Shown piece after piece: positions 3,015 to 33,469 of a DNA stretch of 39,706 nt. Position 1 is the stretch's first letter. Each line of letters opens with the position of its first letter. The notes beneath the pieces are model-generated. The model ran no database searches. It had not been told where the DNA came from and saw only the letters and a list, made by a program, of their open reading frames with translations. The stretch is from positions 1-39,706 of the forward strand of contig JBFOMH010000034.1 in the NCBI GenBank assembly GCA_040830765.1. The letters are read 5' to 3'. The translations under genes and the position numbers were made by a program. Source of the DNA: Puniceicoccaceae bacterium (lineage in GTDB: Bacteria; Verrucomicrobiota; Verrucomicrobiia; Opitutales; Oceanipulchritudinaceae).

Positions 3015-6000
3015 ATGCCTAATACCCCAAACTTGGTCTTATTCCTGGTCACGATTCTGGTGACCACGGCGGATGCCTCGGTGCTCTTGGATGCCCACGA
3101 TTTTGAAGATCCCTTTGTCAGCTTGCCTGCCGGGAGCATTGGAACCGGCAAGCTCCCGGAAGGCTGGCTGGAAGCAACAACCGGTGATGCGACGGAGGTT
3201 GTATATGGAGAGTTGACAGTGGCTCCCAACGCCGGTGCCCAGTCGCTTCTCGCTGAGGTATCGTCTGTTGCGGGGGGCGCGGCCCGTCTTGTCAGCCCAT
3301 CGTTCACTGTCAGTGGATATGACGTAGTCCGGCTGGAATTGGCACTGCGCAGTCCCACCTCCAGCTTCGTCGACATTAAGTTGGTGGACGCCGCAGACCC
3401 GACGATTATCCTCTGGTCAAAGTCCTTTCAGACGTATCCCGAATGGAGGGAATCCGCTTCCTTGATCGCCGTTACCGGGCCGATGGATGATGTGAGCCTC
3501 GTTCTTGAGATACCCGTGACAGGCCGGGTCGAGACGGATGACTGGAAGATGGAAGGCCTGATGTACGAAGAGCTAGAGCAGGAGAGGGCTTTTGAGGACA
3601 ACCTCCTTCCAAGCAGCGTGTTCCCGCTGGGCGTGGTTGCTCCCTACATTCAGGGAGGCAACTACCGCCCGGACAGCGCCATTGTCAGCGATCCCACAGA
3701 GCCGGGTCCGTCGGGCCTTCCCTCGCTCAAAATGACCAGTTTCCCCACCGAATGGCTTGCCCGGACCGTCCGGCTGACGGCCCCTTTTCAAGGACGACCG
3801 CTGCAGGAGCACACATTCAGCGTGTGGGTTAAAGGATCTCCAGATGCCAGAGGCCAAAGGGTCATCCTGGAACTGGGCTACCACGGCGATTACCTGATCG
3901 TTCCCTTTCGGATCACGAGTGACTGGCAGCGCTACAGCATAACACAAGAACTCCCCTTCAGCTCGACTGGCGTGCACCTGGCCCGGGTCAAGTCGGACTC
4001 GTTGTACCCCGTGTGGGTGGATGGACTGCGTGTCGTGGAATCCTCAACCGATACGGACTACCGGCCCAGCGGGCCACTTGAAGTGAACCTGAAGCCAACC
4101 GCCGAATTTGACCTTTTCTTCAAGGGAGAGCCCCTGGAAGTTGAGTTTGCGCTTGTCGGCGACAGGGCAACAGCCCACGAGATGGAAGTGTGTTTGAAGT
4201 TGCCCGATCGCAGCCTTTATTTGCTGGATTCGGTTCCCGTCGAGAATTCGCCCGGTGAAGTCTTGAAAGTGAATTGGATCGCCCCGGAAAGCGATTATGA
4301 CCAGCTCGGGACATTCCTTCTCCAGATGCGGGTGCTGGATGAATTGGGAATTCCGCTGTCGAACTGGTCAGAAACACTTGTTCACCGCATACAAAGACCG
4401 CATTACGAAAACGAATTCGCGACGGACTCGCCGTTCGGCCTGCACATATTCGCGACGGATCGGGAAGCACGCCGGGCCAAGAAACTCGGCTTCAACTGGG
4501 TCCGTTCACACTATCACTTTTCCTGGTCGTGGATTCAGCCTCAAGAAGGGGGCCCTTTCAATTGGGCCAACACAGACACGTGGACGGCTGCCATGAAAGA
4601 CGCGAAACTGCAGCTCCTTGCCTTCTTCGGCTCGGCGCCTTTGTGGGCATCTGAGGCCAGCGATGGATGGAGCGGCGGCAACACCCCCTGGTACCGGTTT
4701 ACCGCCCCGCCCCGGAACGAGACAGCAACCCTGGATGCTTTTGAGGATTACGTCTTCCAAATCCTTAACCGGTACGGGGATGACATCGATGCCCTGGAGA
4801 TCTGGAACGAGCCTTTCCTGCCAGCCTTTTTCCCGGTGGACGTGGTAAACGGCGTTCCCGTCCGTGGCCCGGCGGAGCTTCTCAACAAGATGGCCCAACG
4901 GGTCCGTGACGTGGCGGACAGGATTGGCTACACCAAGCCGATCGCATGGCAAGTGGGCGGGAACTACGGTGCAGATGAACTCGCTTTCGATATGGAGAAC
5001 ATCGCGCTTGGGACCCACGAGCTGGCGGACATGTACACGATGCACCGTTATTACCCTGTGGAAATTGGCCTGCCCGGGGATCTCGTCGAGAATGATTTCA
5101 ACCTGATCCGTCAGAACTATCCGCAAGCGACCCAGACAAAGCCGCTCTGGCTCAGCGAGGGAAGCTCCATGACCAGTGAAACCTTCAATCTGTTCGAATA
5201 CCTCCCGCCCTGGAAACCGGCGAGTTCCATTGAGCAGCAGAACCGGAAATTCATCCTTTATCATCTGGGCTACCTAGCGGCCGGCTATGAAAAGCTCTTC
5301 CCCTATGCCTTCTTTGAGCAGGATGGATGGAAGGCGAACTATAACTTCATGCATCTGGATGGGCGCCTCTCGCACATTGCCTCCGTGTTTTCCAACCTGA
5401 GCTACCAGTTGGAAGGGCGGGACTTTATCCAGCATTCCTATCCGGAATACGGGGCGACGGCTTGGGAATTCGCCGCACGCGAGGAAAACGGGTCATCCCT
5501 TGCCGTGGTCATGAACCCGGCCAAACGAACGATCCTGATGGAAAAACCGGCCGGGATGGAGATTCTGGATGTTTATGGGAATCCTTTATCCATCCCCTCC
5601 TTTCTCGATTCCGCGTTTTTCTACTTGCAGGCTGATGACTTGACCAACGCCTGGCCCTTGCTGGCCGACAAGCTGGTCCAGTCGGACTCCCGGAGCCCCT
5701 TTGTCGGTTTCCCGGACGAAGGGGATTCATGGCGTCAAACCTACATGGGCCGGTTGAACGATTACTGGTGGCCCTTCCTGATCCACGAGGATATGGGTAC
5801 CCTTTACACCATTCCCACCACGCGTACCCGGGCCCGAACGTTTTACCTGTACGATTATCAACTGGAGAGCTGGATCTATACAGGGGCCGAAATTTACCCA
5901 TGGGTCTATCACCTCGGTCTCAAGGCCTGGTATTACCAGATTCCCGTTTCCACTCTATCCCAACGCTGGCTGTGGCTCATACTGGACGGGCAAGGCAGTT

Positions 6001-6023
6001 GGGTGACCACAGATGACATTTAG
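3015..6023 (+). CDS. Secreted modular clan GH-A glycoside hydrolase (GH39-like TIM barrel) with N-terminal CBM-like beta-sandwiches and a Trp-rich C-terminal tail
   Basis: 1002 aa. Signal peptide-like start (ADA-S). CBM4/9-like segments (HTFSVWVKG...ITSDWQRYS). Barrel motifs FGLH, LGFNWVR, acid/base EIWNEP, TMHRY and nucleophile LWLSE. Last ~110 aa are Trp/Tyr-rich. Confidence 0.78.
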   Translation: MPNTPNLVLFLVTILVTTADASVLLDAHDFEDPFVSLPAGSIGTGKLPEGWLEATTGDATEVVYGELTVAPNAGAQSLLAEVSSVAGGAARLVSPSFTVSGYDVVRLELALRSPTSSFVDIKLVDAADPTIILWSKSFQTYPEWRESASLIAVTGPMDDVSLVLEIPVTGRVETDDWKMEGLMYEELEQERAFEDNLLPSSVFPLGVVAPYIQGGNYRPDSAIVSDPTEPGPSGLPSLKMTSFPTEWLARTVRLTAPFQGRPLQEHTFSVWVKGSPDARGQRVILELGYHGDYLIVPFRITSDWQRYSITQELPFSSTGVHLARVKSDSLYPVWVDGLRVVESSTDTDYRPSGPLEVNLKPTAEFDLFFKGEPLEVEFALVGDRATAHEMEVCLKLPDRSLYLLDSVPVENSPGEVLKVNWIAPESDYDQLGTFLLQMRVLDELGIPLSNWSETLVHRIQRPHYENEFATDSPFGLHIFATDREARRAKKLGFNWVRSHYHFSWSWIQPQEGGPFNWANTDTWTAAMKDAKLQLLAFFGSAPLWASEASDGWSGGNTPWYRFTAPPRNETATLDAFEDYVFQILNRYGDDIDALEIWNEPFLPAFFPVDVVNGVPVRGPAELLNKMAQRVRDVADRIGYTKPIAWQVGGNYGADELAFDMENIALGTHELADMYTMHRYYPVEIGLPGDLVENDFNLIRQNYPQATQTKPLWLSEGSSMTSETFNLFEYLPPWKPASSIEQQNRKFILYHLGYLAAGYEKLFPYAFFEQDGWKANYNFMHLDGRLSHIASVFSNLSYQLEGRDFIQHSYPEYGATAWEFAAREENGSSLAVVMNPAKRTILMEKPAGMEILDVYGNPLSIPSFLDSAFFYLQADDLTNAWPLLADKLVQSDSRSPFVGFPDEGDSWRQTYMGRLNDYWWPFLIHEDMGTLYTIPTTRTRARTFYLYDYQLESWIYTGAEIYPWVYHLGLKAWYYQIPVSTLSQRWLWLILDGQGSWVTTDDI

Positions 6024-6036
6024 AATTACCAAAGTT

Positions 6037-9033
6037 ATGAGACTATCCCAAATATTCCTTATTGCCTGCGTACTGTTGCCATCCGGGGCACAGGCCCTTG
6101 TTGAGCTGTATTCCCAGGACTTCGAAGACGCCTTCGTCGATCTTCCACCAAGCAGCATTGGCACGGGCAAGCTTCCCGCCGGTTGGGTGGATGCCACTGC
6201 CGCCACAACAGAGGTGGACTATGGAGAGTTGACGGTGGCTCCCAACGGGGGACTCCAGTCCCTTCTTATCGACGTATCATCGGTTGCGGGGGGGGCGGCG
6301 AGGCTTTCCAGTCCATCCTTCAGTGTAAGCGGGCATGAAGTTGTCCGGTTGAATTTGGCCTTGCGCAGTCCTGCGTCCGGTTTTGTCAACATTCTGCTGG
6401 TGGACAGTGCAGACCCATCGGTGGTTTACTGGTCCAAGTCCATCCAGATGAGCCCGGAGTGGAGGATGTTCTCATCCCTGATCGCGGTCACCGGGCCAAT
6501 GGATGCGGTGAGTTTCATCCTTGAGACGCCTGCAATGGGTCGGGTTGAGACGGATGACTGGACGATCGAGGGCCTGATGTTTGAGGAACTTGAACAAGAG
6601 CGATCCTTCGATGAAAACCTGCTTCCCGGAAGCGTCTTTCCGTTAGGGGTGGTGGCTCCCTACAATGCCGGGGGAAATTACCGGCCCGACGATGCCGTTG
6701 CCAGCGATCCAGCCGAGCCGGGACCCTCGGGGCTTCCGTCGCTGCGGATGACCAGTTTTCCGACAGAATTCTTTAGCCGGACCGTGCGTTTAACGGTGCC
6801 TTTCCAGGGGCGTCCCCTGCGGGAACATACCTTCAGTGTGTGGCTTAAGGGCTCTCCGGGTGCGTCGAATCAAACGGTGACGCTTGAGCTCGGCTACGAC
6901 GGTGATTTCCAGAGGGTGCCCGTCCAACTCTCTCGTGACTGGCAGCGCTACAGCGTCACGTACACACTTCCCTTCAGTACGACGGGGGTGCATCTGGCCC
7001 GGCTCAAGTCGAGCTCGGAATTTCCCTTCTGGGTGGATGGGCTGCGGGTTGTTGAGTCGGCCACGGATACGGACTACCTGCCCGGCGGGCCAATTGAGGT
7101 TTCGCTGAGGCCAACCGCCGAATACGACGTCTGTTTCAAGGGGGAGCCCCTGGAAGCCGAGATGGCGCTGGTCGGGGAGCGGGAGACTGCCTATGAAGTG
7201 GAGGTACGGGTGAAACTGCCCGAGGGGGGCCTTTACCTGCAGGATTTTGTTCCCCTGGAGGATTCACTCGAGGCAGTCCTGAAAAGATTCTGGACTGCTC
7301 CGGAAAGCGGTTTTGACCGCCTTGGTACCTATGTCGTCCAGATGCGGGTGCTGGATGAGCTGGGCATCCCCTTGTCGAAGTGGGCCGAAACCCTCGTCCA
7401 CCGTGTACAACGGCCACATTTTGAGAATGATTTCGCGCCGGACTCACCCTTCGGCCTGCACATATTCGCGACGGAGCGGGAGGCCAAGAGGGCCAAGAAA
7501 CTCGGCTTTAACTGGGTCCGCACAAGCTATCAGCTCGCCTGGTCCTGGCTCCAGCCGGAAGAGGGAGGGGCATTTAACTGGACCGACCTGGATGAGCGCA
7601 TGACTGCCCTCAAGGATGCGAAACTGCAGCTCCTGGTTTATCTCGCGGCGGCCCCCATGTGGGCATCCGAGGCCAGCTTTGATTGGGTCGGCGGCAATTC
7701 CTTCTGGTACCGGTTTACGGCACCTCCCCGCAATGAGACCGCCACCCTTGATGCCTTTGAAGAGTACGCCTTTGGCATCCTTGACCGCTACGGGGATGCC
7801 ATCGATGCTCTGGAGCTCTGGAACGAGCCCTTCCTGCCGGCCTTTTTCCCGGTGAACGTGGTTGACGGCGTTCCCATCCGCGCCCCGGCGGAGCTCTATA
7901 ACAAGATGGCCCAGCGGGTCCGCAGCGCGGCGGACAGGGCGGGCTACACCAAACCCATCGCCTGGAACGTGGGGGGGAACTACGGCGGGGATGAGCTCGC
8001 TTTCGACAATGAGAATATCAATCTCGGGACGGCCGACCTGGTTGATCTCTATACCATGCACCGGTACTCCTCGGTGGATATTGGTCTGCCCGGTGATATC
8101 ATAGAGGATGACATTGCATTGGTTCGCGACACCTATCCGCAAGCAACCACAGAGCGACCGGTCTGGCTCAGCGAAGGGAGTTCCATGACCAACGACACCT
8201 TTAACCTCTATGAATTCAGTCCGCCGCGGATCCCGGCGAGTGCTGTTGCGCAGCAGAGCAGGAAATTCATCCTGTACCATCTGGGTTATCTCGCGGCCGG
8301 TTATGAACGGCTCTTTCCGTATGCCTTCTTCGAACAGGATGAATGGACGGCGAATTTCAATTTACTGCATCTGGACGGGCGGCTATCTCACCTGGCCTCG
8401 GTGTTTTCCAACCTCAGCTACCAACTGGAGGGGCGGGACTTCATCCAGCATGCCTATCCGGAATACGGAGCGACGGCATGGGAATTTGCCGCGCGTGAGG
8501 ATAACGGCTTATCACTTGCCGTGGTCTTGAACCCGGCCAAACGAACGATCCTGATGGAGAAGCCCGCTGGAATCGAGATGCTCGATTTCTACGGAAACCC
8601 GCTCGCCGTGCCCGCCATCCTTGACTCCCGGTTTTCCTACCTGCTGGCGGATGACCTTGCCGCCTCCTGGCCATTGCTGGAAAACGTGCTCGTGCAATCC
8701 GACATCCGGAGCCCCTTCAGCTTTTTCCCTGACCAGGGCAACTCCTGGCGCCAGACCTACATGGGGCGGTTGAACGATTATTGGTGGCCTTTCCTGATGC
8801 ATGAGGAAATGGGCGCGCTTTATGCCGTTCCTGCGTCTGCCTCCCGGACATTCTACTTGTACGATTATCAATTGGGGAGCTGGACCTATTCGGGAGCCGG
8901 TATTTATCCCTGGTTTTATCACCTAGGGCTCCAAGCCTGGTGTTACCAGGTTTCTGGTTCAGCCGATGCTCAACGCTGGTTGTGGGTGCTTGATGGTGAG
9001 CAAGGGCGCTGGGTCAGGGTGGACGAACTCTGA
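6037..9033 (+). CDS. Tandem paralog of 3015..6023: secreted GH39-like modular hydrolase with Trp-rich tail
   Basis: Collinear with the upstream gene, with ELWNEP and VWLSE intact. Start placed at ATG 6037 (MRLSQIFLIACVLLPSGAQA, signal peptide) instead of 6013, which overlaps the previous gene. Confidence 0.78.
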   Translation: MRLSQIFLIACVLLPSGAQALVELYSQDFEDAFVDLPPSSIGTGKLPAGWVDATAATTEVDYGELTVAPNGGLQSLLIDVSSVAGGAARLSSPSFSVSGHEVVRLNLALRSPASGFVNILLVDSADPSVVYWSKSIQMSPEWRMFSSLIAVTGPMDAVSFILETPAMGRVETDDWTIEGLMFEELEQERSFDENLLPGSVFPLGVVAPYNAGGNYRPDDAVASDPAEPGPSGLPSLRMTSFPTEFFSRTVRLTVPFQGRPLREHTFSVWLKGSPGASNQTVTLELGYDGDFQRVPVQLSRDWQRYSVTYTLPFSTTGVHLARLKSSSEFPFWVDGLRVVESATDTDYLPGGPIEVSLRPTAEYDVCFKGEPLEAEMALVGERETAYEVEVRVKLPEGGLYLQDFVPLEDSLEAVLKRFWTAPESGFDRLGTYVVQMRVLDELGIPLSKWAETLVHRVQRPHFENDFAPDSPFGLHIFATEREAKRAKKLGFNWVRTSYQLAWSWLQPEEGGAFNWTDLDERMTALKDAKLQLLVYLAAAPMWASEASFDWVGGNSFWYRFTAPPRNETATLDAFEEYAFGILDRYGDAIDALELWNEPFLPAFFPVNVVDGVPIRAPAELYNKMAQRVRSAADRAGYTKPIAWNVGGNYGGDELAFDNENINLGTADLVDLYTMHRYSSVDIGLPGDIIEDDIALVRDTYPQATTERPVWLSEGSSMTNDTFNLYEFSPPRIPASAVAQQSRKFILYHLGYLAAGYERLFPYAFFEQDEWTANFNLLHLDGRLSHLASVFSNLSYQLEGRDFIQHAYPEYGATAWEFAAREDNGLSLAVVLNPAKRTILMEKPAGIEMLDFYGNPLAVPAILDSRFSYLLADDLAASWPLLENVLVQSDIRSPFSFFPDQGNSWRQTYMGRLNDYWWPFLMHEEMGALYAVPASASRTFYLYDYQLGSWTYSGAGIYPWFYHLGLQAWCYQVSGSADAQRWLWVLDGEQGRWVRVDEL

Positions 9034-11795: not shown

Positions 11796-12740
11796 TTATG
11801 GGGCGGGGACGAATACCCAGCCACTGTCATTTCCAATGTAGATGTAGCTGTTCAGGCTTACCACCCAGATCCATGGATCGAGGGTGACATTCACCCAACC
11901 CAGCCACGGGGTGGTATCGGCCCAACCGTCCACATCGACGGGATAACCGTACCAATCGGTCTCTTCACTGGGCAAGAGCGCCACGGCCGTGCCCTTGTAC
12001 CCGATGTTCCCGCCGGCATTCATGAGTATCAGATAGTCACCGGGCGCAGTAGCAGTGGCGGTGATCTGTGCACAGGCGAACAGGCGCTCATCCCCGAAGA
12101 AACCTTCCGCACCGCCGCTGGTTATGGCCATGAATTTGTCGTCCACGATGGCACCATCGGCCGTATAGTGGGTAACCATCAGGGTGTGGCTGTCCTGGAA
12201 GGAAAAATCCCAGCTGGAGTATTTATAACCATCGTTGAACCAGTGGTAGACCGTAACTTCCTGATCACTTGCCAGGTCAATCCGGGTGATCAGGGTGGAT
12301 AGCTGGTCTCCAGGCAGCCAACCGGAATGCGAGACCCCCCAGTAATCCGATCCAAACGGGAATGGACTGCCATCGGTCCACTCAAAGACAGGATGCCAGC
12401 GATCCGGATCCGGCCACTGGTTGGATCCATAGGCTCCTCCGCCGGGATCTTCCGCATTTGTTCCCACGATGAATTGGCCCCCGGCTTTCTGGGCCAGAAT
12501 ACCGATGGTCCCATCGTTACGGGGAATCATGTAATCGACGTACGGTGGCTCCGATACCCGGATGCTCTTTTCGCTGTCAATGGTATCGTTGAAGTCCGGT
12601 GCGGGGCCTACTGCTTCCTGATAGCCAAATGGGAGGGGCTCTCCATCCTGGATCTTTGTCACTTCCAATGTGAGCGCCTGCAAGGACACGCAGGTAGCAG
12701 CAATTCCACAGGTAAGTAAGGGGCGTTTTCTTATTTTCAT
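11796..12740 (-). CDS. Secreted protein of unknown family (paralog 1 of 4) with a short Trp-rich C-terminal tail
   Basis: Start placed at ATG 12740 (MKIRKRPLLTCGIAATCVSLQA-LTLEV, signal peptide) by alignment to the paralogs. Contains AYGSNQWPDPDRWHPVFEWTDG; tail begins WYGYPVDVDGWADTTPWLGWVNV. Confidence 0.85.
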   Translation of the reverse strand: MKIRKRPLLTCGIAATCVSLQALTLEVTKIQDGEPLPFGYQEAVGPAPDFNDTIDSEKSIRVSEPPYVDYMIPRNDGTIGILAQKAGGQFIVGTNAEDPGGGAYGSNQWPDPDRWHPVFEWTDGSPFPFGSDYWGVSHSGWLPGDQLSTLITRIDLASDQEVTVYHWFNDGYKYSSWDFSFQDSHTLMVTHYTADGAIVDDKFMAITSGGAEGFFGDERLFACAQITATATAPGDYLILMNAGGNIGYKGTAVALLPSEETDWYGYPVDVDGWADTTPWLGWVNVTLDPWIWVVSLNSYIYIGNDSGWVFVPAP

Positions 12741-12861
12741 AGGATAGACACAAGTAATCAGACTGAATCGATTCGGTTCAACAAGGGTTCGGTATAATTT
12801 TCTCTTTATGGGCAAAAGCATATTCATGTGAAATGCCTTTCGCGGTTTTGTTCCCCGATTA

Positions 12862-15295: not shown

Positions 15296-15437
15296 GGGAA
15301 TCAGATTCTGTAGCCTTAAAGTGTGTACAAGGCAGGTCGCATGTTCCTATCCCTTGAAGCGTGCTCGGCACTACTCGTCGAATGCGTCTTGGCTATACCG
15401 CCTCTAAATTGAACCAAACAAGGAAATGCGAAGTAAT

Positions 15438-16289
15438 ATGAAAAAATATATTGTTCTACTCCTCGCCTCAGGCTTTGCGCTTACCGCATCAGCTCAGGTA
15501 GCCACTGTCTATGAAGGCTTTGACTATGCCATCGGCAGCGGCATATTGGGCCAGGGGCCCGCTGGTGCCGCCGGTACCTGGACTGGCAACGACACCAACG
15601 TTTTGGCTGGCAGCCTCAACTACACCGCCACCGCTGCTGCGCTTCCCGCTTCCGGTGGTCACATCAGCATTGATTTCATCCGCCCGAAGCTCGACATCGT
15701 AGCTGGCTCGGCTATTCGTGACACCGACGGCGACTCGACCGTATGGGTCAGCTGGCTCGCCCAGTACACGTACCTCGACGGTTACTACAGTGCCGTGGAA
15801 ATTAGCGCCAGCGATAGCTCTTCCGGTGCTGACACCTCCATCAATGCCCGTACCTTGAATATTGGAAAAACAGGAGGTGACCCAATTGACACCTTCGACC
15901 CATACTTCAATGTTATGGTGAACAACACCAGGGGTGGTAGCACCTTCGACCTCGACGGCCCCGACGGCGGCTTCTCCGACACGGGTGTCAACTTCTATGT
16001 TGTGAAGATGAACTTCGTTAACGGTGGGGATGACTCAGCTCTCATCTGGGTTAACCCAACTGTTGCTGAGTTGACTGGTGAAACAGGTGCTACCGTTGTC
16101 ACTACAGGAAGCCTGAATGGTTTCGACCACGTCTTCGTCGCCGACTTCAGCGGCAACGGTGATCTTGCCTTCGACGAACTCCGCGTTGGTCCGTCCCTCG
16201 GCAGCGTTGCGGTTCCCGAGCCGTCCACCTACGCGCTCATCCTTGGTTTCCTCGGACTCGGCTTCGCCCTCTGGCGCCGCCGCAAGTAA
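15438..16289 (+). CDS. PEP-CTERM sorting-domain protein with a beta-rich passenger of unknown function
   Basis: Signal peptide MKKYIVLLLASGFALTASA (alternative start 15426). C-terminus VPEPSTYALILGFLGLGFALWRRRK has the PEP motif, TM helix and basic tail. Confidence 0.9.
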   Translation: MKKYIVLLLASGFALTASAQVATVYEGFDYAIGSGILGQGPAGAAGTWTGNDTNVLAGSLNYTATAAALPASGGHISIDFIRPKLDIVAGSAIRDTDGDSTVWVSWLAQYTYLDGYYSAVEISASDSSSGADTSINARTLNIGKTGGDPIDTFDPYFNVMVNNTRGGSTFDLDGPDGGFSDTGVNFYVVKMNFVNGGDDSALIWVNPTVAELTGETGATVVTTGSLNGFDHVFVADFSGNGDLAFDELRVGPSLGSVAVPEPSTYALILGFLGLGFALWRRRK

Positions 16290-16524: not shown

Positions 16525-17370
16525 ATGAAGAATGTCGTTCCTTTCTTAACCATTTCCTTGGCGCTTGCTAGTACCCTTTCCGGCCTGACGATTGATGTTC
16601 AAAAGATCCTCGATGGGCAGCCCCTCCCGTTCGGCTATCAGGAGACAAACGGACCCTCGCCGGACTTCAGTTCCACCATCACCCCATCGGAGGTTCTCAA
16701 TTTGTCCGCGGGGACTTTTGTCGATTACTTGATTCCCCGCAATGATGGGACCATCGGCATCCACACACAAAAGGCGGGCGGATCGTTCATCACCAGCAAC
16801 AATGCCGACGATCCCGGTGGGACAGCCTACGGGTCCAACCAGTGGCCGGACCCTGACCGCTGGCATCCGGTCTTCGAGTGGACAGACGGCGCCGCACCCA
16901 ATGCCAGCGGCAGCGACTACTGGGGCGTGTCCCACTCCGGTTGGGGTTCCAGCGATGTTTCCCAACTTGATATCCGGATTGATCTCGCCACGATGGAGGA
17001 AGTAACCGTCTACCACTGGTTCAACGATGGCTGGCTCTATGAGGGAAGGCGGGGCCCCAACCATGACACGCTCACCGGACATACCCTTACTGTGACTCAT
17101 TTCAATGCAGTCGATGCGGTGATTGGCACGGAGAGTGTTTTGCTGACCCAGGGTGGTGCGGAAAGTTACTTCGGTGACCACCGGATATTTGCCACGGCAA
17201 CGATCACCGCGACAGCAACAGCCCCCGGTGACTATCTCATCTTGTCCAATGTGGGCGCGAATATCGGCTACAAGGGAACCGCTGTTTCGGTTGTTCCGGA
17301 ACCAGCCGCTTTAGCCCTGATGGCCGGGATGCTCTGCCTGGCCGTTGTCTTATGGCAACGGAGGGCGTAA
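16525..17370 (+). CDS. Secreted protein of unknown family (paralog 2 of 4) ending in PEP-CTERM
   Basis: Signal peptide and the same core as 11796, 17573 and 18547, but the C-terminus is VPEPAALALMAGMLCLAVVLWQRRA. Confidence 0.88.
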   Translation: MKNVVPFLTISLALASTLSGLTIDVQKILDGQPLPFGYQETNGPSPDFSSTITPSEVLNLSAGTFVDYLIPRNDGTIGIHTQKAGGSFITSNNADDPGGTAYGSNQWPDPDRWHPVFEWTDGAAPNASGSDYWGVSHSGWGSSDVSQLDIRIDLATMEEVTVYHWFNDGWLYEGRRGPNHDTLTGHTLTVTHFNAVDAVIGTESVLLTQGGAESYFGDHRIFATATITATATAPGDYLILSNVGANIGYKGTAVSVVPEPAALALMAGMLCLAVVLWQRRA

Positions 17371-17397
17371 TTTTCAGGATTAAGGGTTAAACAAGGC

Positions 17398-17428
17398 GCC
17401 TCACCCTCTCGGGGGTGAGGCATTTTCT
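17398..17428 (+). terminator. Intrinsic terminator resembling the 16316 hairpin
   Basis: GCCTCACCC-tctcgg-GGGTGAGGC followed by ATTTTCT. Confidence 0.75.
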
Positions 17429-17442
17429 CTGGAACCTCGCGA

Positions 17443-17458
17443 ATTCGCCAATACGAAT
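17443..17458. promoter_or_regulatory. Palindromic operator ATTCG-N6-CGAAT
   Basis: ATTCG-CCAATA-CGAAT followed by CCAGAT, as at 16371. Confidence 0.75.
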
Positions 17459-17572
17459 CCAGATGGCGGAGAGAGTTAAATTGGATTTGAGTGAAAAGTC
17501 CCGCCTCCTCACGTTCAAGATTACTTAGGTTACATGCATCAACAAGCAAACTCTTGAACCCCTCATCAACAA

Positions 17573-18514: not shown

Positions 18515-18546
18515 TTCTTCGGATTGATTCATCAATCCCAAATGTA

Positions 18547-19494
18547 ATGATGAAGAGAATACTATCCGCTACGGCATGTTTAATAGCGTTTGCCGGCTCC
18601 CTATCAGCCCTTACCGTGGAAGTGCAGAAGATCCAGAATGGGCAGCCGCTACCTTTTGGTTACCAATTGACCAATGAAGGTGCGCCCGATTTTGATCCTG
18701 TCGAGTATGACACGTCCCTGATTTTATACGTTTCGGACCCTCCCTATGTCGACTACATGCTTCCCCGCAACGACGGGACTATTGGAATTCTTGCCAATAA
18801 GGTCGGGGGACAATTCATCGTCGAAACAAATGCTGAAGATCCGGGCGGGACCGCCTATGGGTCCAACCAATGGCCGGATCCGGATCGCTGGCATCCCGTC
18901 TTTGAATGGACGGACGGCACCCCGTTTCCCTTTGGCTCAGGCTACTGGGGTGTCTCCCACTCAGGTTGGGCATCCGATGATGAATCCCATCTGGTTACTC
19001 GGGTTAATCTCGCCTCCTTCGAAGAAGTGACGATCTACCACTGGTTCAACGATGGCTGGGCCTATCAGGGCCCGCGTGGCTCAAATCACATCTCCTTGAC
19101 GGGGATGAATTATACCATCACGCAGTATGCTGCAGATGGATCGGAGATCGCCTCGGAACTCTTTATCATTGAGCAGGGCGGCGCGGAGGACTTCTTCGGT
19201 GATCACCGGATGTTCGCCACCGGAATCATCAAGGCGACAGCAACAGCTCCGGGAGACTACCTCATCATCGAGAATCTTGGCGGCAGTGTCGGTTTCAAGG
19301 GGATGGCGGTGGCTATTCTTGAGAGCGAGACCCCCGATTGGCATGGCTACTCTGTGGATCCGGAAGGTTGGGCCGACACAACCCCATGGCTGGGTTGGGT
19401 GAATGTCACCTTTGACCCATGGATATGGGTGGTTAATTTGGGCAGCTACAATTATATCGGGGATAATTCCGGGTGGGTGTACGTTCCGAAGTGA
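18547..19494 (+). CDS. Secreted protein of unknown family (paralog 4 of 4) with a short Trp-rich tail
   Basis: 315 aa tandem near-copy of 17573..18514, starting 32 bp after it. Confidence 0.88.
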   Translation: MMKRILSATACLIAFAGSLSALTVEVQKIQNGQPLPFGYQLTNEGAPDFDPVEYDTSLILYVSDPPYVDYMLPRNDGTIGILANKVGGQFIVETNAEDPGGTAYGSNQWPDPDRWHPVFEWTDGTPFPFGSGYWGVSHSGWASDDESHLVTRVNLASFEEVTIYHWFNDGWAYQGPRGSNHISLTGMNYTITQYAADGSEIASELFIIEQGGAEDFFGDHRMFATGIIKATATAPGDYLIIENLGGSVGFKGMAVAILESETPDWHGYSVDPEGWADTTPWLGWVNVTFDPWIWVVNLGSYNYIGDNSGWVYVPK

Positions 19495-19707: not shown

Positions 19708-22011
19708 ATGAGCACGCTATTTACCTCCGCCCCAAGTTTATACGGTGTCCTAAAGCGAACAGCGCTTTTCCTTTGCGCATTTACCATGTCTTCCGCCGTC
19801 CACACGGTTGTTGCCCAGGATGACGATGCGGGAAACGAACCGGTCTTTGAGTTGTCACCGTTCGAGGTTGTAACTGATGAGCAGTATGGTTACCGGGCCA
19901 ATACCAGCGTTTCCGGTACAAGAACCGCCACCGCGGTGCGTCAATTGCCCTTCACCCTGCAGATCGTGACCGATGAACTGATTGACGACATGAATGTTCC
20001 CGATCTGGAGGACGTCCTCCTGTTTACGGCGGGTGTCCAGGAGAACAGGGAAAACGTGGGCAACTACGGCAGCTTCAACGTGCGGGGAATCCGGCAGCTC
20101 TACACCCTGCGCAACGGGTTCCGTCATTATGGTCCCAATGATGCCAGTACTCTTTCCCGCGTTGAAGTGGTCAAGGGACCGGCCGGACTTCTCTACGGGC
20201 AGGTCTTTCCGGGGGGCGTTGTCAATGCCGTGACCAAGAAGCCACTACAATTCAGCCAGCAAGTCCTGGAGGTACAGGCGGGCAGCTATGGGACTTACCG
20301 GGCCGTGGTGGACTCTACCGGACCATTGAACAAAAGCAAGAGCTTGAGTTACCGCTTGATCGGAACCTACGGGGAGATCGGCAGCTTTGTGGAGTTTTAT
20401 GAGAGGCGGGTCAAGAGCATCGTCCCGATGATCACCTTTGCCCCCACCAAGTGGCTCAAGTTGACCCTGGAGCTTGAGCACTATGAGAACCTTGAAGATG
20501 CCCCGCCCCCCGGCATGCTCGCCATCAATACGGATGAGCTGGCCGCGGCGATCGAGAATCCGGACGATCCATACGGGTTGGTTGATAACCCCAAAGCCGC
20601 CAACGCCAGTATCGCCAAGCCGGATACCTTCAATGGCATTGCCACCTGGCTGCCGCGAAGCTTCAATATCAACGGACCCGGAACCTACAGTGATTACACC
20701 AAGGAGAGCGCCACGCTGTACACGGACATCCGGTTCTCTGACAGCATCAGTTTCCGCTCGGCCCTGAATTACCTCGATTCCGAGAATGACCGCTACGGCA
20801 GCTTCGTTTCCGACACCTTGCGCACCGGGATCGACTTTGTCAGCCGGGCCAATTACGGCATCAACACGAACGTAGTCTTCACCAGTCAGAATGACTTTTT
20901 CTTCACTTTCGATACAGGACCCATTGCGCACAAACTTCTGGCGGGCGGTGAGTATTACAGGGATAAATTCACCAATTACAAGGATTCGGAAGTCAGGCGC
21001 TTTGCCCGCTTGCCGAGTCCCTACGATTTCATCACGCGCGGATGGGCATCCTACTTTCAGTATCTTGTCCCCATCCGTGACTTTGAGCGGAGCCCGCGTC
21101 CCGAGGAGCTGACTGGATTGGAATTCAACATAGGGGAGGAAACCACTGGACATGCCTATTACTTCGTCGACCAGCTGACCTTTTTCAATGAGAGGGCTCA
21201 CGTGGTCGCTGGCACCCGTTACGAATCCTATGAAACAAACTTCGGTGCGGATAGTGGGAAAAATTCCAACTGGACCTACCAGGGAGGGGCCATGTTCGAC
21301 CTTGTGGATTGGATTTCCATCTTTGCCAGCTACAGCGAAAGTTTCTACCGTAACGGGTTTCTCAAGGATAACTTCATTGATCCGGACCTGCGGGAGACAA
21401 TGGGCCCGCCGCAATTGGGTGACGGGATTGATATCGGCTTCAAGTGGGAAACCGCAGGAGGCCGCCTGGCCGGCACGATGTCCTATTTTGATCTGGCACA
21501 AACAAACATTCCTCTGGATGTCGTCATTGACGACGAAAATGTCCAGGTGCTGGCAGGGGAGCGTACCTCCACCGGTTTTGAATTTGATCTCCATTACGCA
21601 CCGGTTCCCCATTGGCAGGTGATATTCAACTACACTTACCTCGATGCCATCGATGTGGATTCAGGATCGGAAATGCCCAATGTTCCCACCCACCAAGCCA
21701 ACCTCTGGACGCGTTACGAATTTCTCGAGGGAAGGTTCGAGGGGGTGTTTCTCGGCGGTGGTGCGCGCTACCTCGGCGACCGCCCGGCGGGCAATGAAAC
21801 CAACCTTTTCAACCGGCCGAACTACGTCTTTGATGCCAAGGCCTACACCCATATCGATGTGTTCATGGGGAAGGAATTTGAGTTCAGCAACCACACCCTT
21901 CAGCTCCAGTTCAATATCACCAACCTGACAGACGAAAAGTACATCCGGGGCGGGCAACTGCTACCCAGCGAACCCCGGCGTTACCTGCTCTCCCTTAAGT
22001 CCACCTGGTAG
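19708..22011 (+). CDS. TonB-dependent outer membrane receptor
   Basis: 767 aa. Signal peptide, VFELSPFEV/GYRA..SVSGTRT start, plug motifs FNVRG and RVEVVKGPAGLLYG...GGVVNAVTKKP, C-terminal NITNLTDEKY and a terminal aromatic residue (LKSTW). Confidence 0.93.
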   Translation: MSTLFTSAPSLYGVLKRTALFLCAFTMSSAVHTVVAQDDDAGNEPVFELSPFEVVTDEQYGYRANTSVSGTRTATAVRQLPFTLQIVTDELIDDMNVPDLEDVLLFTAGVQENRENVGNYGSFNVRGIRQLYTLRNGFRHYGPNDASTLSRVEVVKGPAGLLYGQVFPGGVVNAVTKKPLQFSQQVLEVQAGSYGTYRAVVDSTGPLNKSKSLSYRLIGTYGEIGSFVEFYERRVKSIVPMITFAPTKWLKLTLELEHYENLEDAPPPGMLAINTDELAAAIENPDDPYGLVDNPKAANASIAKPDTFNGIATWLPRSFNINGPGTYSDYTKESATLYTDIRFSDSISFRSALNYLDSENDRYGSFVSDTLRTGIDFVSRANYGINTNVVFTSQNDFFFTFDTGPIAHKLLAGGEYYRDKFTNYKDSEVRRFARLPSPYDFITRGWASYFQYLVPIRDFERSPRPEELTGLEFNIGEETTGHAYYFVDQLTFFNERAHVVAGTRYESYETNFGADSGKNSNWTYQGGAMFDLVDWISIFASYSESFYRNGFLKDNFIDPDLRETMGPPQLGDGIDIGFKWETAGGRLAGTMSYFDLAQTNIPLDVVIDDENVQVLAGERTSTGFEFDLHYAPVPHWQVIFNYTYLDAIDVDSGSEMPNVPTHQANLWTRYEFLEGRFEGVFLGGGARYLGDRPAGNETNLFNRPNYVFDAKAYTHIDVFMGKEFEFSNHTLQLQFNITNLTDEKYIRGGQLLPSEPRRYLLSLKSTW

Positions 22012-27437: not shown

Positions 27438-27451
27438 GGCAGGGGAAGGCC

Positions 27452-28300: not shown

Positions 28301-28330
28301 GGGTAAGTTATTGGGTACGTTTTTCGGGAA

Positions 28331-28346: not shown

Positions 28347-28414
28347 GTATCTTGATACCGAGGAGGGAACTTTCCTTTCCTTCCGGTTACGACATACCAA
28401 GACTGCACCCACCT

Positions 28415-31400
28415 ATGAATAAGTCCCTACTTCTTTACCTATCTGTTTTCACTTGCGTCGCTAGTTCGGCGCTGTTTGCGGCAGACCCCATTCTCGAGTA
28501 CACCTTCAACACGCCCACATTTACCTATGCAGAAGGTGCGAATGCCGGTTCCGGAGCCCTCTCCACTGGTCAGTCAGGAATGAAGATCGGTTTTCGGAAC
28601 GCCTTGGGGGGAGGCCCACCCCGCGGGCAGGGACAAACTTGGTTCCTCAGTAATGGCAGTTTCTATACCGTCGATATGGGTGGTGTTTCCGGTCTGTCCA
28701 ACGATTATGCCTTTCAGAACGATGCTCAAGACGACAACATGGGCGGGATGGTTAATTCCACCAATGCTCAGGGCGCGGCCATTGCTGAGGCGGTGGAGCC
28801 CCTGCTGTCTGGATTGGATGCGATCACGGTAACGGGATGGATCTATGTCCGAGGGACCGTGCCCTTGCAGAGTTACGCCCGCATTGTTTCGTGTATGGGG
28901 GGCGGCGGTGGCTTTGAATTGCGTCATGTGTTTGATACCCCCGGAACGCTGGAGCTTCGCCTCAACGATGGAACAGCGATTGCTCCGCAAAACCGCTTCA
29001 CGGAGACCCAGAAGTGGGTATTTTTCGCTGTCTCCTATGACAGCCTGGCCAGTGGACAGGAAGTCCGGTTCTACATCGGGGACACGGTTAGTACCGTGGA
29101 GGCGATCGTTGGTGCTGTTGCCATGGCGCAGGGACAGCTTAAGGGTGGTCTGGCCTTCACGCTCGGTAATTCCGCCGGGGGCGGCAACCGCGTTTTGCCT
29201 GCCAACTTCGACAACATCCGCGTATACGGGGAAGCCCTTTCGCTGGCAGAACTGGAGGCCGTCCGTGCCGATGACCTGCTGGAACCCATCGTCTTGCCGT
29301 TGCCCCCGACCGGACTTTCCGCCACAGTGCAAAGCTCGACGGAAGTCTACCTCGAGTGGAATGATAACAGCACGAACGAGGAATTCTTCAACCTCATCCG
29401 CACCGAGAATGGCGTCCCCACGGTCATCGAGTTGCCCGCGGACACCGTTTCCTATATGGACACCAACCTCACTCCCGAAAAGGAATACACCTACACGGTT
29501 CAGTCGGGGATTACAGCGGGCAGCTTGCCTTCGGTTGGTTCTGCCACGGTCACGACTCCTCAGATTGTTACCTCACTCAATAAAATCGTGGATCTCCGGA
29601 TCGCTGAAAAGTCCGCCACCGGAGTCACCCTGATCTGGACGGATCCCAATGCGGGGGAAGCCGGATACATCGTTGAGAAATTCAACGACGGTAATCAGAC
29701 ATGGGAATTTTGGGATGTCTTTGAGGCCAATACCGTGGAAGTTACCTTCAATGAACTGGTCAATGCGGACCTGCAACGGTTCAGGGTATTCGCCTATAAC
29801 GGAGATATTGAAGCGGATCCCGCCGTTATTGTCTTCCAGTTGCGCAACCGCGAATTCGCCCTTGGCGTTACCGAGGAAGTCGTGATCGATGAGAGCCTGG
29901 TCACGCAAACCGTCCATGTCGATCCCGTCAACGGGGACGACGCGAATGATGGGAGCACATTGGCGCTGGCCAAGAAAACCATCACCAGTGCCATCCTCGC
30001 GGCCGCTGCCAACCAGAGCAAGGGCGAGGGCACCAAGATCCTTCTCCAGCCCGGAATTTATCAGGAGGGAAGTCCGTATAACGATCTCTTTACCCAGCCG
30101 ATGATCGGCATGGGCCCCAACGCCTACCCCAACCCAATCCGGGGCAAACCCTCGATGCCGATTATCTTTGAGGGCGCCGGATGGGACGGGGATTGGGTGA
30201 ATGACGATGTCATTATCCAGGGCTCAAACCGCTACACCAACTGGACCCACCTTGGCGACAATGTCTATGAGCACGAGTGGACCATCGACTGGGGTGTCAA
30301 TGCGACCTATCCTTTTGCGGGATCCCCCATTGCCACCCGTTCCTACCACGGTGTGAATGTCCGTCCCACCGGCGATCGCTATTGGCAGATGTACTACCAC
30401 ATGGATGGTCCGGACGATCCCGCCATCCAGTATGTCGAACCTCACGAAGGTTACTTCTGGGTCGATGAGGAGGCCGACTATATCCGGGTCAAGGCGCCGG
30501 CCGGCACCGACCTGACGGATTCCACCCTGGAAGTGAATGTCAATGAACGTCACCGTCTCTTCCAGTTCTTTCAGGCCTCAGGCTCCGTCAGCAGCCAGAA
30601 AGATACGCCGATGATTTTCCGTAACATCGTCTTCCGGCATGGTTACCGCGGGCCCCTGTTGCAGAACACCGGCCGCGTGATCATTGAGGACTGCAGTTTC
30701 GAGAACACGAAGTACTTTGGTTTCACCTACAACAGTTCCTATCCGGGACTGATTGTCCGGCGCTGTGAATTCATCCGCAATGGCCACTCCGGTGGAGGCG
30801 CCGACTGCTACTGGAAGGAAGGTCCGGCCAATTACCTGTTTGAAGACAACTTCTTCTTCGAAAACGGACGCCAGGCAACGGTGCTGAAATTCCGTGGTCA
30901 CCTCGAGTCGCAGATTAAGTTGGCCTTTGTGGACGGAATGACCTTCCGCGACTTCCACATGGTAAATGGTCATGGCGTCGGGCTTTGGCTCGATACCGGA
31001 CTGGTCAATTTCGAGGCCTATAACGGGATTATCGAGGGCACTTCCTCCGCCGCCGTCTTCGTTGAAAACCACAACCGAAACAACATTGAGAACCTCGGCG
31101 ACCAGATCACCGTTTATTTGCGCGACCTCTGGATCCGCGACGGGGTCTTTGACCCCACTTGGAACAGTTGGAATACCAAGGGGGTTCAAACCGCCGAAAG
31201 TGAAAACTGGATTGCTGACAACCTCTGGATCGAGGAGCAGGAGAGGCCCTACAATTTCGCCTACAACAATCGTGGGGATATCTACCAGAACATTATCAAG
31301 AACACCGTAGCCATCCAGGAGACGACAAAACCGTTCTACTACGGTGATCCGGAGACCTGGCAGCAGGCTTTCGACACCCTGACTCCGGAATTCGGAGGGA

Positions 31401-33469
31401 ACCGCTATTACGGTGGTATGGACAATGGATTCCTCAACCGGTTAACAACGGCGGTGTCCTTTGAAGATTGGGTAGATGCTGCTAATAGCAACCCGGCACG
31501 CAATGTCAGTGGTATTGAAGAGGACAGCCTGCGCTTCCCCGATCCGGCCAGTGCCCGACCGACGCTTGGGATCTACCCGACCAGTCGTGAGATGAGCGAG
31601 GGCGACAGCCGGGACAAGGGACTTCTGCTGACCCGCCTTGGGGCACCCGTTGATGCCCCCCTGACGGTTGACCTTGTCTACTCGACCGGTGGTGGAAGCA
31701 CGGATGCCAGCGACTTTGTCTCCCTGCCCAGCCAGGTGACCATTCCCGCTGACTCCATCAGCGTTTACATACCGCTCTCCATTGTCGAGGACGGGCAACC
31801 GGAAGGACTGGAGCTGTTTGAGGTGCAGGTTATTGAGCAGGGCAACTTCGAGGTGCTGGCCGAACCGGCCCGGATTAGTGTGATCGATGCGGACACGAGT
31901 GACTTGCCGATCTTCAGGGTGCTGCCCATCGGGGACCGTATCTTTGAGAATGTTGACGCACCCTGCAATGTACGGATTCTGCGCGAGGGCATTCTCACGG
32001 GTAGCGTAACGCTTGATTTCGTGGAAGCCGGTGGTGCTCAGATGGGCGTCGACTACACCGTATCGCCAGCCTCCCTCACGTTTGGTCCAGAGGACTACGA
32101 GCAAATTGTTGAGATCCGTCCCATCAGTGACGACCAGGTTGAGGGTGTTGAATATGTACAGCTGCAGTTGACCCAGAGCAGCGGCGAGGATGTCGTCATA
32201 GCTGCTCCCAGCTCCCTCAATATTCCGATCAACGACAATGATGGCGCAGTCGCTGAGAGCGTTGCGGTCAGTTTTGCGCAGGCGCTGGACGATTCGCTTG
32301 AAGCCAGCTTCCAAATCAGCAATCCCGGCGATTCAAGCATTGTCTATTCGCTTGAGTGGCAAAAATTCACGGTGAATGCGCTGGGCAGTGAATCGCCGGA
32401 CGGTCCGGCCGCTGATGGCTATTTTGACATATCAGCAACCGGCACCAAGTCGGGTTGGTCCTGGTTCTTCCCAAATGATGACGGCTTCAGCCAGCCGATT
32501 GAATTGCCTTGGTCCTTCAACTGGTACGGGGATGATTACACGACCATCCACGCCAGCAGCAACGGGCTGATTGTCTTTGGCAATCCCTCCAACAAGTTTG
32601 CCCGCTATGCCACGCCGGTTCTGCTACCGCTCAATACAAACGACACGGTGGCTAATTCCCTCGCCGTGGCATGGGCCAACATGAAACTGGACAGCTCCTC
32701 CGGGCTCTACAGCGAGCAGGTTGGTGACACGTTCATCATACAATGGGACAACTTCCTCATCAATGGTGAACGGACCACCTTCCAAGTGCAATTTGAGGAA
32801 GGGAATACGCTCACTGCGTATTACCAGGTTTGGCCGCAAGGGCAGGACATCATGGTGGGCTATCAGGACAGCACGAAGGAGCTGGGAGGTTCAATCATTC
32901 CGCTGCAATCCCTTCCCGGCACACCCTATGCCCTCCGTTTCGACGCGGTTGTTCCGTTCCTGAACTCGGATACCACCAGTGTCCAGTTGGCCCAGGGAGA
33001 GTCGGCAACGGTGGACTTCCTTGTCACCTCGAAGGGCCTTTCGCTGGGCGAGAACACTGGCATCCTGTCCATCACTTCGGATTCAGGACCCGACTCTGAC
33101 CAGCGGTTGCCTGTCGTCGTCGACTACTCCCAAAATCCGGCGATACGCGACTTTGGTGAAGCAGTGACAGATCTCCAGGAAGGCTGGGCCCTGGTGACGG
33201 ACCTGGGCTGGATCTATACCGCCGATTGGCCCTATGTCTATCACTCCGATCTGGGCTGGCTATACAAGCTGGAGGGCCCGGGCCAGCACTACTGGCTCGC
33301 TCTTGAGTGGGATTCCGGATGGATGTACATGCCGCCTTCCTGGTATCCGTACGCTTACTTTTATGGTAATGGTTTCCTGACTAATAAATGGGGTTACCTG
33401 GTTACCTCCGTCGACACCATCTGGGTGTATGTCGTCGGAGAAGACTGGATTACGCTGCCGCGCGGCTGA
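28415..33469 (+). CDS. Large secreted modular protein: LamG-like, 2x Fn3, right-handed beta-helix, 2x Calx-beta-like, NIDO-like, Trp-rich tail
   Basis: 1684 aa from ATG 28415 (signal peptide MNKSLL...ALFA). LamG-like: ITVTGWI..., WVFFAVSYD, FDNIRVYGEALS..E. Fn3: PTGLSAT...LEWNDNSTNEE.F. Beta-helix: HVDPVNGDDANDG...KTI..A, ILLQPGIY, IEDCSFEN. Calx-beta-like: VTIPA...I.EDG.PEG.E.F. NIDO-like: DDGFSQPIELPWSFNWYG..Y.....SSNGLI.F. Confidence 0.8.
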   Translation: MNKSLLLYLSVFTCVASSALFAADPILEYTFNTPTFTYAEGANAGSGALSTGQSGMKIGFRNALGGGPPRGQGQTWFLSNGSFYTVDMGGVSGLSNDYAFQNDAQDDNMGGMVNSTNAQGAAIAEAVEPLLSGLDAITVTGWIYVRGTVPLQSYARIVSCMGGGGGFELRHVFDTPGTLELRLNDGTAIAPQNRFTETQKWVFFAVSYDSLASGQEVRFYIGDTVSTVEAIVGAVAMAQGQLKGGLAFTLGNSAGGGNRVLPANFDNIRVYGEALSLAELEAVRADDLLEPIVLPLPPTGLSATVQSSTEVYLEWNDNSTNEEFFNLIRTENGVPTVIELPADTVSYMDTNLTPEKEYTYTVQSGITAGSLPSVGSATVTTPQIVTSLNKIVDLRIAEKSATGVTLIWTDPNAGEAGYIVEKFNDGNQTWEFWDVFEANTVEVTFNELVNADLQRFRVFAYNGDIEADPAVIVFQLRNREFALGVTEEVVIDESLVTQTVHVDPVNGDDANDGSTLALAKKTITSAILAAAANQSKGEGTKILLQPGIYQEGSPYNDLFTQPMIGMGPNAYPNPIRGKPSMPIIFEGAGWDGDWVNDDVIIQGSNRYTNWTHLGDNVYEHEWTIDWGVNATYPFAGSPIATRSYHGVNVRPTGDRYWQMYYHMDGPDDPAIQYVEPHEGYFWVDEEADYIRVKAPAGTDLTDSTLEVNVNERHRLFQFFQASGSVSSQKDTPMIFRNIVFRHGYRGPLLQNTGRVIIEDCSFENTKYFGFTYNSSYPGLIVRRCEFIRNGHSGGGADCYWKEGPANYLFEDNFFFENGRQATVLKFRGHLESQIKLAFVDGMTFRDFHMVNGHGVGLWLDTGLVNFEAYNGIIEGTSSAAVFVENHNRNNIENLGDQITVYLRDLWIRDGVFDPTWNSWNTKGVQTAESENWIADNLWIEEQERPYNFAYNNRGDIYQNIIKNTVAIQETTKPFYYGDPETWQQAFDTLTPEFGGNRYYGGMDNGFLNRLTTAVSFEDWVDAANSNPARNVSGIEEDSLRFPDPASARPTLGIYPTSREMSEGDSRDKGLLLTRLGAPVDAPLTVDLVYSTGGGSTDASDFVSLPSQVTIPADSISVYIPLSIVEDGQPEGLELFEVQVIEQGNFEVLAEPARISVIDADTSDLPIFRVLPIGDRIFENVDAPCNVRILREGILTGSVTLDFVEAGGAQMGVDYTVSPASLTFGPEDYEQIVEIRPISDDQVEGVEYVQLQLTQSSGEDVVIAAPSSLNIPINDNDGAVAESVAVSFAQALDDSLEASFQISNPGDSSIVYSLEWQKFTVNALGSESPDGPAADGYFDISATGTKSGWSWFFPNDDGFSQPIELPWSFNWYGDDYTTIHASSNGLIVFGNPSNKFARYATPVLLPLNTNDTVANSLAVAWANMKLDSSSGLYSEQVGDTFIIQWDNFLINGERTTFQVQFEEGNTLTAYYQVWPQGQDIMVGYQDSTKELGGSIIPLQSLPGTPYALRFDAVVPFLNSDTTSVQLAQGESATVDFLVTSKGLSLGENTGILSITSDSGPDSDQRLPVVVDYSQNPAIRDFGEAVTDLQEGWALVTDLGWIYTADWPYVYHSDLGWLYKLEGPGQHYWLALEWDSGWMYMPPSWYPYAYFYGNGFLTNKWGYLVTSVDTIWVYVVGEDWITLPRG

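Follow-up and report, generated by a model that had tools for sequence, protein, structure and literature searches.

The SLH, CWB2 and choline-binding CW_binding_1 domains are non-covalent cell-wall anchoring domains. In Bacteroidota, the C-terminal domain (CTD) of the type IX secretion system (T9SS) is a terminal domain shared by dozens of Sec-exported proteins (PMC4804311). In this work, we analysed a stretch of 39,706 nucleotides (hereafter the window), which is contig C34 of the genome of a Puniceicoccaceae bacterium of the order Opitutales, Verrucomicrobiota (assembly GCA_040830765.1; 3.99 Mb, 97% complete), and in which six secreted proteins end in tails rich in tryptophan and tyrosine. 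A preliminary description, made from the letters of the window, had proposed that these tails are a modular beta-hairpin repeat loosely like choline-binding repeats, acting as a non-covalent surface anchor or as a secretion tag analogous to the T9SS CTD. The results presented below allow us to conclude that the tails are real and belong to a large family without a name, and that they give a testable lead to their ligand.

All six tails were recovered at the positions first assigned to them. Each runs up to the stop codon, and each of the six proteins starts with a signal-like segment. The motif originally written for them held in its core in four of the six and in full in only one. Profiles iterated inside the source genome, for which the long tails at 5688 and 8707 served as seeds of the long one, defined two non-overlapping classes, S (the short tails; 55 proteins with 61 copies) and L (the long tails; 34 proteins). 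The long profile recruited the third long tail, at 33134, with E 5e-16, and the reversed open reading frames (ORFs) of the source genome gave no match to either profile at E<=1e-4. The resulting 89 carriers are a lower bound, because a relaxed search adds a few divergent copies. Single S and L tails are barely similar to each other (E 0.001 to 6). The profile-profile comparison of the two classes gave a probability of 93% (E 2.6e-7, 24 columns), the best of 100 column shuffles reaching 8.5%, and deeper alignments gave 94% (E 9e-8) with a related core of 24-30 columns. The kinship of long and short tails assumed at the outset was thus borne out, and by these comparisons S and L are related, unnamed modules.

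AlphaFold2 predicted an all-beta fold for S (predicted local distance difference test, pLDDT, 87) and ten strands in five hairpins for L (pLDDT 93). When L was cut into its hairpins, units 2, 3 and 4 matched one another at 84-92%, the matches of unit 5 ranged from 4 to 79%, and the S unit matched all four L hairpins (2-5) at 68-96%; nine of the ten pairs scored above all 10 shuffles. Because the hairpins cut from L, and the S unit, match one another, the predicted repeat unit is an aromatic hairpin of about 20 residues, detected in at least four copies in L and not in two as previously proposed. In L, some 20 columns consist of aromatic residues to 80% or more, which probably exceeds what a core of 95 residues can bury. 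A histidine in the second L hairpin is 93% conserved, and aromatic residues make up 22-27% of the modules. The complex prediction for two L copies scored 0.00, which neither supports nor contradicts self-association.

No named match for S or L was obtained in Pfam, NCBIfam, PHROGs or the PDB sequences, so that the tails are not an annotated carbohydrate-binding module (CBM); the matches in the ESM Atlas were unnamed clusters, mostly from Verrucomicrobiota. Foldseek of both models against the PDB and viral structures returned none at E<=0.001. In the VIA fold search of 48,161 chains, the best Z was 3.3 for S and 4.0 for L, which is background level, and these fold-search negatives prove neither a new nor a different fold. 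Taken together, the profiles, the models, the hairpin matches and the absence of library names support an unnamed, modular beta-hairpin repeat on exported proteins. Its likeness to the choline-binding repeats is limited to the pattern of tandem aromatic hairpins of about 20 residues. No CW_binding_1 profile match at E<=1 was found among 30 L and 43 S members, the choline-binding module of LytB (7pl5) was reached with E 0.2 only, and the choline-binding beta-solenoid was not among the listed fold-search rows for the S and L models. LicD (PF04991) was found in none of 5 genomes, 4 of them L-positive, in a search whose control matched in 1 of 14.

The first, non-significant row of the fold search for S (Z 3.3, root-mean-square deviation, rmsd, 3.1, 50 aligned residues), and one of three tied first rows for L (Z 4.0, rmsd 3.1, 52 aligned), was the OCRE domain of RBM5/RBM10, a eukaryotic, intracellular domain that is likewise a Tyr-rich twisted antiparallel sheet and shows no sequence likeness to the module. 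In an OCRE-like reading, the module could be a protein dock, its aromatic sheet binding a surface scaffold, an S-layer or a transporter. S genes show a modest enrichment near TonB receptors, 9 of the 55 having one within 10 kb vs. 136 of 2058 in the background. However, Z values of about 4 are background for this search, PEP-CTERM genes lie equally near to receptors (4 of 24; only 13 receptors were detected), no neighbour is common to the lineages, and the cytoplasmic sulfotransferases described below would not meet a surface scaffold. We regard such a dock as improbable.

In the source genome, a signal-like N-terminus was found by a loose rule in 80 of the 89 carriers vs. 792 of 1801 background ORFs, in agreement with the expected co-occurrence with signal peptides; two carriers have a lipobox and one has a later membrane helix. 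The module ends within 15 residues of the C-terminus in 74 carriers and at 16-45 residues in 7, lies at the mature N-terminus in 6 and is internal in 2. The initial statement that it sits at the extreme C-terminus of signal-peptide proteins is therefore true of the window but not elsewhere, where signal-less and polytopic carriers also occur. The 89 carriers fall into 60 cargo clusters, which include proteases, nucleases, cyclophilins, cytochromes and adhesins, and many carriers look like glycan-active enzymes. The glycan-active look of these carriers, together with the aromatic composition, would suit a new CBM-like domain that binds an external polysaccharide as substrate; the breadth of the cargo, the cytoplasmic carriers and the exchange with PEP-CTERM make this very improbable indeed. 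Seven S carriers have an extra half copy of 35-45 residues after the module (C5:57059, C5:69737, C5:75067, C5:180440, C7:79339, C36:16126, C4:124042), and the modules at C21:23917-24339 (L) and C5:68295-68507 (S) stand alone or orphaned without a signal peptide, possibly as gene remnants.

The same cargo occurs with S, with L, with PEP-CTERM, with a third unnamed tail or with no tail, and none of the 89 carriers bears two kinds of tail. S and L replace each other in several cargo families, and S and PEP-CTERM do so on one cargo at 59-64% identity in the window, 57% in C12 and 28% in C19/C23. The clearest evidence offered by the window itself is the gene at 16525-17370, which the preliminary description overlooked. 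Its product is 59-64% identical over 254-258 residues to the three S carriers, and the swap point lies directly after the common cargo, where the sister proteins start S. The module thus fills the same slot as PEP-CTERM and coexists with three exosortase genes. It differs from PEP-CTERM (TIGR02595, PF07589, PF09721) in lacking the PEP motif, the membrane helix and the basic tail, in being a folded beta domain by prediction, in lacking a detected cognate protease and in not being confined to the C-terminus; the six window tails gave no match to PF07589 or TIGR02595, whereas two neighbours (15426 and 16525) did. The third tail, a C-terminal module with the pattern S-x-D/N-L-x-x-W and an F-F-R-L end, was observed on 14 or more exported proteins (e.g., C5:337224-340901, C26:52701-55373, C17:152862-155954); it can take the place of S or L on one and the same cargo, and is never found together with either.

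The second part of the evidence comes from carriers without a signal or with several membrane helices. In three lineages, L forms fusions with signal-less enzymes of the sulfotransferase fold, and it is also joined to a ten-helix PMT_2 (GT-C) glycosyltransferase (PMT_2 E 1.6e-11, ten hydrophobic segments) that adjoins a polysaccharide cluster. As judged from these predicted proteins, the L carriers include some that a route through Sec and then the outer membrane cannot carry. The conserved signal-less carrier has an Stf0-family domain (PF09037, E 1e-26 to 1e-36, above the cut-off), whose closest solved relative is Stf0 itself (1tex, E 6e-13). It differs from Stf0 and LpsS in adding an immunoglobulin-like (Ig) domain, which resembles that of NBR1 weakly (E 0.002-0.05), and the L module, and the fused form is absent from the source genome. 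LpsS, an Stf0-family enzyme of Sinorhizobium, is described as sulfating lipopolysaccharide (LPS; PMC12445080).

Stf0 is present in 14 of the 151 genomes of the Opitutales order, and 13 of these 14 are L-positive vs. 49 of 151 overall (Fisher p 1.4e-6, overstated since related genomes are not independent). Of the 24 Stf0 matches, 11 were Stf0-Ig-L fusions, spread over 8 genomes of 4 families; the same fusion was seen in G336, G439, L160, P0279 and P0312, and in the class of G336 two of the three L-positive genomes have it. There are up to three such genes per genome, inserted singly (L300-L318, L365, L414, L160:10131-11867, P0279, P0312). The motif of the loop binding 3′-phosphoadenosine-5′-phosphosulfate (PAPS) was present in 12 of 13 fusions checked, with a methionine 5-24 residues upstream, one of them having a further N-terminal domain. 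PAPS-dependent enzymes act in the cytoplasm. A single query with the Ig domain, run without a positive control, gave no match in 5 L-rich genomes including the source. In the order Syntrophobacterales, a signal-less sulfotransferase-like protein carries L in three of the eight L-positive genomes, and close unfused homologues occur in six L-negative ones; this enzyme has a P-loop-like motif and no Pfam match of its own, only distant homologues being called sulfotransferase. A Sulfotransfer_2-type fusion (L231) was found in one Verrucomicrobium.

The three fused sulfotransferase types show no significant mutual similarity, which points to separate recruitments. Likewise, the modules on the GT-C enzyme and on the Syntrophobacterales fusion are closest to local exported modules (53-61%), suggesting that these fusions, too, were recruited separately; the module tree behind this grouping is a quick one with 86 of 146 branches open, and was used solely for local grouping. 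Altogether, 79 of 267 carriers lack a hydrophobic N-terminal stretch. The recognisable complete enzymes among them (4) all have the sulfotransferase fold, and the rest appear by eye to be cut fragments of extracellular proteins. Two fusions lie within glycan-export clusters, one with Wzm/Wzt-like genes (G131) and one beside an ATP-binding cassette (ABC) exporter (L163). A further candidate, P0169, with a sulfotransferase-like domain and FG-GAP repeats, was dropped, the repeats being N-terminal and a separate gene in relatives. In two genomes, an ABC ATPase-Stf0 fusion without L ends a likely polysaccharide export operon (L312:289-2253, L313:301-2247), and in G115 and G148 there are other L carriers, small or of membrane type, that show no evident signal peptide (L322:16309-17451, L322:13114-13857, L324:16724-17191).

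These carriers argue against an outer-membrane export or sorting tag of the T9SS-CTD kind, read by an undescribed translocon. Such a tag would fit the predominance of C-terminal tails, mostly one per protein, a cargo that must be outside, and the tens of copies in separate lineages; as with the T9SS CTD, the module is shared by dozens of proteins exported through Sec, and the types of cargo are similar. It is difficult to reconcile with the mature N-terminal copies (6 of 89 in the source genome; 20 of the best 150 L representatives elsewhere), with doubled and internal ones, with its presence on conserved PAPS-type fusions that have no signal and on a membrane protein of ten helices, and with sister proteins devoid of such a tail. 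T9SS CTD models gave no match among the six carriers or 36 L members. The CTD is an Ig-like sandwich while the S and L models show a run of hairpins, and no CTD stands among the listed fold matches, which does not exclude likeness. No cognate transporter was found; SprA (PF14349) was absent from 5 genomes, in a search whose control genomes gave no match either. We therefore disfavour the tag half of the original anchor-or-tag proposal as quite improbable, and by the features compared above the module would be none of T9SS CTD, PEP-CTERM, choline-binding repeat or annotated CBM. The anchor half of that proposal coincides with our own best reading.

This reading, for which we see about an even chance, is that the module attaches its carriers, by non-covalent docking, to a glycolipid of the envelope, either the LPS core or a lipid-linked glycan, in an SLH-like role. 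The cargo would cross the inner membrane by Sec and reach the surface by a general route, secretins being present, and the module would hold it there by binding the glycolipid. The latter would be built on the cytoplasmic face and displayed outside after modification both on that face and in the periplasm, and the sulfotransferases and the GT-C enzyme would use the same module to reach it during its assembly at the inner membrane. A glycolipid seems the simplest candidate because both the exported adhesins and the inner-membrane enzymes would meet it, and a single ligand on both faces of the envelope would account for all carriers. Most likely, the role of the module resembles that of the SLH/CWB anchors, which are likewise small mobile domains, carried at one end or the other by exported proteins that are unrelated and have no other anchor; the fusions suggest that an envelope glycopolymer may be bound. 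The module gave no sequence match to SLH, CWB2 or CW_binding_1, and differs from them in its diderm hosts, in the lack of LicD in the genomes searched and in its fusion to biosynthetic-side enzymes, of which we know no example for these three domains.

A general membrane-interface tether, whose exposed Trp/Tyr face would insert among the lipid head groups without recognising a particular glycan, would explain cytoplasmic and exported carriers equally. It would also agree with the 22-27% of aromatic residues, with the replacement of a membrane anchor (PEP-CTERM) on sister proteins and with the failure to find a biosynthetic partner among the candidates and loci examined. However, more kinds of enzyme than sulfotransferases would be expected among the complete signal-less carriers of a general tether, the GT-C carrier is already membrane-bound, and the distribution is clade-like and patchy. 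We consider the tether rather unlikely.

Several observations weigh against a glycolipid dock as well. The module is acidic in the source genome (median net charge -6), which fits anionic LPS poorly unless cations bridge the two. The non-significant fold match that comes first for S and shares first place for L, OCRE, is a peptide-binding domain. Among the candidates examined, none of the partner or biosynthetic genes follows the distribution of the module, and most fusion genes stand alone amid housekeeping genes. Within the order, only 8 of 49 L-positive genomes have the Stf0 fusion (by hand count, 8 of the 29 that hold at least 10 copies of L), and it is thus not an obligatory part of the system. 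The fusion evidence concerns L alone and comes to five-sixths from other genomes: the only Stf0 of the source genome (C5:175529) and its Sulfotransfer_2 homologue are without the module, and in the small number of relatives examined, none of the signal-less enzymes was seen to bear S.

The search for partners covered 80 loci, in which the recurring clusters were syntenic housekeeping genes of relatives, and, in part, 20 Syntrophobacteraceae regions; no conserved neighbour of the module was found in them. BtaA, in one of 5 genomes, is not supported as a partner. The secretin was rejected since it is present in 5 of 5 genomes including an L-negative one, the exosortase since it is in 111 of the 151 genomes of the order, and a HAD-cluster gene (14 of 151 genomes, 11 of these 14 L-positive) since it does not track the module. 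Sulfotransfer_2 (46 of 151) and Sulfotransfer_3 (84 of 151) are both common in L-negative families, and no L module was found in 60 of their loci (within 1.5 kb on either side, where long ORFs may be cut).

The modules occur as tens of copies in separate lineages, with a distribution that is both clade-like and patchy. S is strong in all 7 genomes of the host's family and nearly absent beyond it; in the Opitutales order it was found in 14 of 151 genomes, five of these 14 being weak cross-matches. L occurs family by family in 49 of the 151 genomes of the order, in 4 of 201 genomes of a phylum sample, in 8 of 96 genomes of the Syntrophobacterales order (that of G333; 2-16 copies) and in a second class, that of G336, where 3 of 121 genomes have it. 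A library of 1.84 billion sequences holds 5,234 clusters of L at 50% identity, and in the best 150 representatives the module is C-terminal in 126, N-terminal in 16, at both ends in 4 and internal in 4. A motif scan of all species genomes gave at least 120 matches; the 80 listed titles, all confirmed by the L profile, include 12 from Syntrophobacteraceae/Deltaproteobacteria and 2 from Victivallales. The L cargo in other genomes is of the surface type (cadherin/Ig, BspA leucine-rich repeats, ice-binding, S8 protease, CAP, FG-GAP), and no one carrier is conserved throughout the low-copy genomes. In G217 (L146, L149, L152), a genome outside the order, 7 proteins carry L in a reduced form of about 70 residues.

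The features of the window are collected in Table 1. Its six carriers are the sole ORFs matched by the tail profiles; as the preliminary description held, the GH94 (529-2916) and GH31 (9040-11670) genes have neither a signal-like N-terminus nor a tail match. Its three unrelated cargo types were equally upheld: the GH42-like/CBM4-like pair (weak Pfam matches), the unannotated domain of about 250 residues in three copies, and the fn3/beta-helix/Calx-beta protein.

Table 1. Predicted carriers, modules and neighbouring features of the window (HMM, hidden Markov model).
Position	Strand	Feature	Basis
3015..6023	+	Exported protein, 1002 residues; L carrier	Weak GH42-like match
5715..6014	+	L module, about 100 residues, C-terminal	Own-genome HMM, E 4e-21
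6013..9033	+	Paralogue of 3015..6023 protein, 1006 residues; L carrier	GH42-like E 3.5e-5, CBM_4_9-like E 7e-4, both judged weak
8731..9024	+	L module; model of ten strands in five hairpins, pLDDT 93	Own-genome HMM
11796..12827	-	Exported protein of the unannotated cargo family (about 250 residues); S carrier; likely start near 12740	
11802..11957	-	S module, about 52 residues	HMM, E 1e-15
15426..16289	+	Exported protein with PEP-CTERM end	PF07589 E 3.2e-6; TIGR02595 above cut-off
16525..17370	+	Cargo as in its three S-carrying sisters, with PEP-CTERM-like tail in place of S	PF07589 E 0.0015, just under cut-off
17573..18514	+	Exported protein, 313 residues, same cargo family (about 250 residues); S carrier	
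18359..18511	+	S module	HMM, E 6e-16
18547..19494	+	Exported protein, 315 residues, same cargo family (about 250 residues); S carrier	
19336..19491	+	S module; predicted all-beta, pLDDT 87	HMM and AlphaFold2
19708..22011	+	TonB-dependent receptor after the S/PEP-CTERM cluster; context only, not shown as partner	
28352..33469	+	Exported protein, about 1700 residues, with fn3, beta-helix and Calx-beta; L carrier; likely start near 28415	
33170..33460	+	Divergent L module	HMM, E 5e-16, from profile seeded solely with the other two long tails

The stretches 11796-12827 and 16525-19494 hold four paralogues of the unannotated exported domain of about 250 residues, which has a near-invariant stretch inside and gave no Pfam match and no clear ESM Atlas match. 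They cluster with the TonB receptor, GH31, GH94 and an IclR-like regulator in what resembles a glycan utilisation locus. Elsewhere in the window, a protein of 487 residues (25974-27437) has a weak match to DUF455, a ferritin-like family (E 4.6e-5), and its gene adjoins an AraC-like regulator and a uroporphyrinogen-decarboxylase-like gene, both neighbours being named by eye.

No account of the module or its sulfotransferase fusion turned up in the literature searched, subscription journals and bioRxiv supplements being outside its coverage. What this work adds, at the level of predicted proteins, is that the module is not strictly C-terminal, that L extends to the Syntrophobacterales order and to a second class, and that it is fused to sulfotransferases and to a GT-C enzyme. 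Opitutales are major degraders of algal polysaccharides, which raises the question of how their enzymes are kept at the cell surface without the routes that Bacteroidota have for this, lipoproteins and T9SS. Here, a large unannotated family, with about ninety proteins in one genome, has a confidently predicted fold without a solved match, and the module can be used at once to annotate surface proteins. It is conceivable, though doubtful, that it represents an undescribed form of surface display in diderm bacteria, in which an aromatic module of new fold would anchor dozens of enzymes and adhesins to a lineage-specific glycolipid. Module-bearing sulfotransferases would mark this glycolipid with sulfate from the cytoplasmic side, thereby tuning the docking sites, and the system would have moved between Verrucomicrobiota and Desulfobacterota, recruiting a sulfotransferase anew. 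The fusions to sulfotransferases and to the GT-C enzyme offer a concrete handle on the ligand, which makes the question of how these surface proteins are anchored testable.

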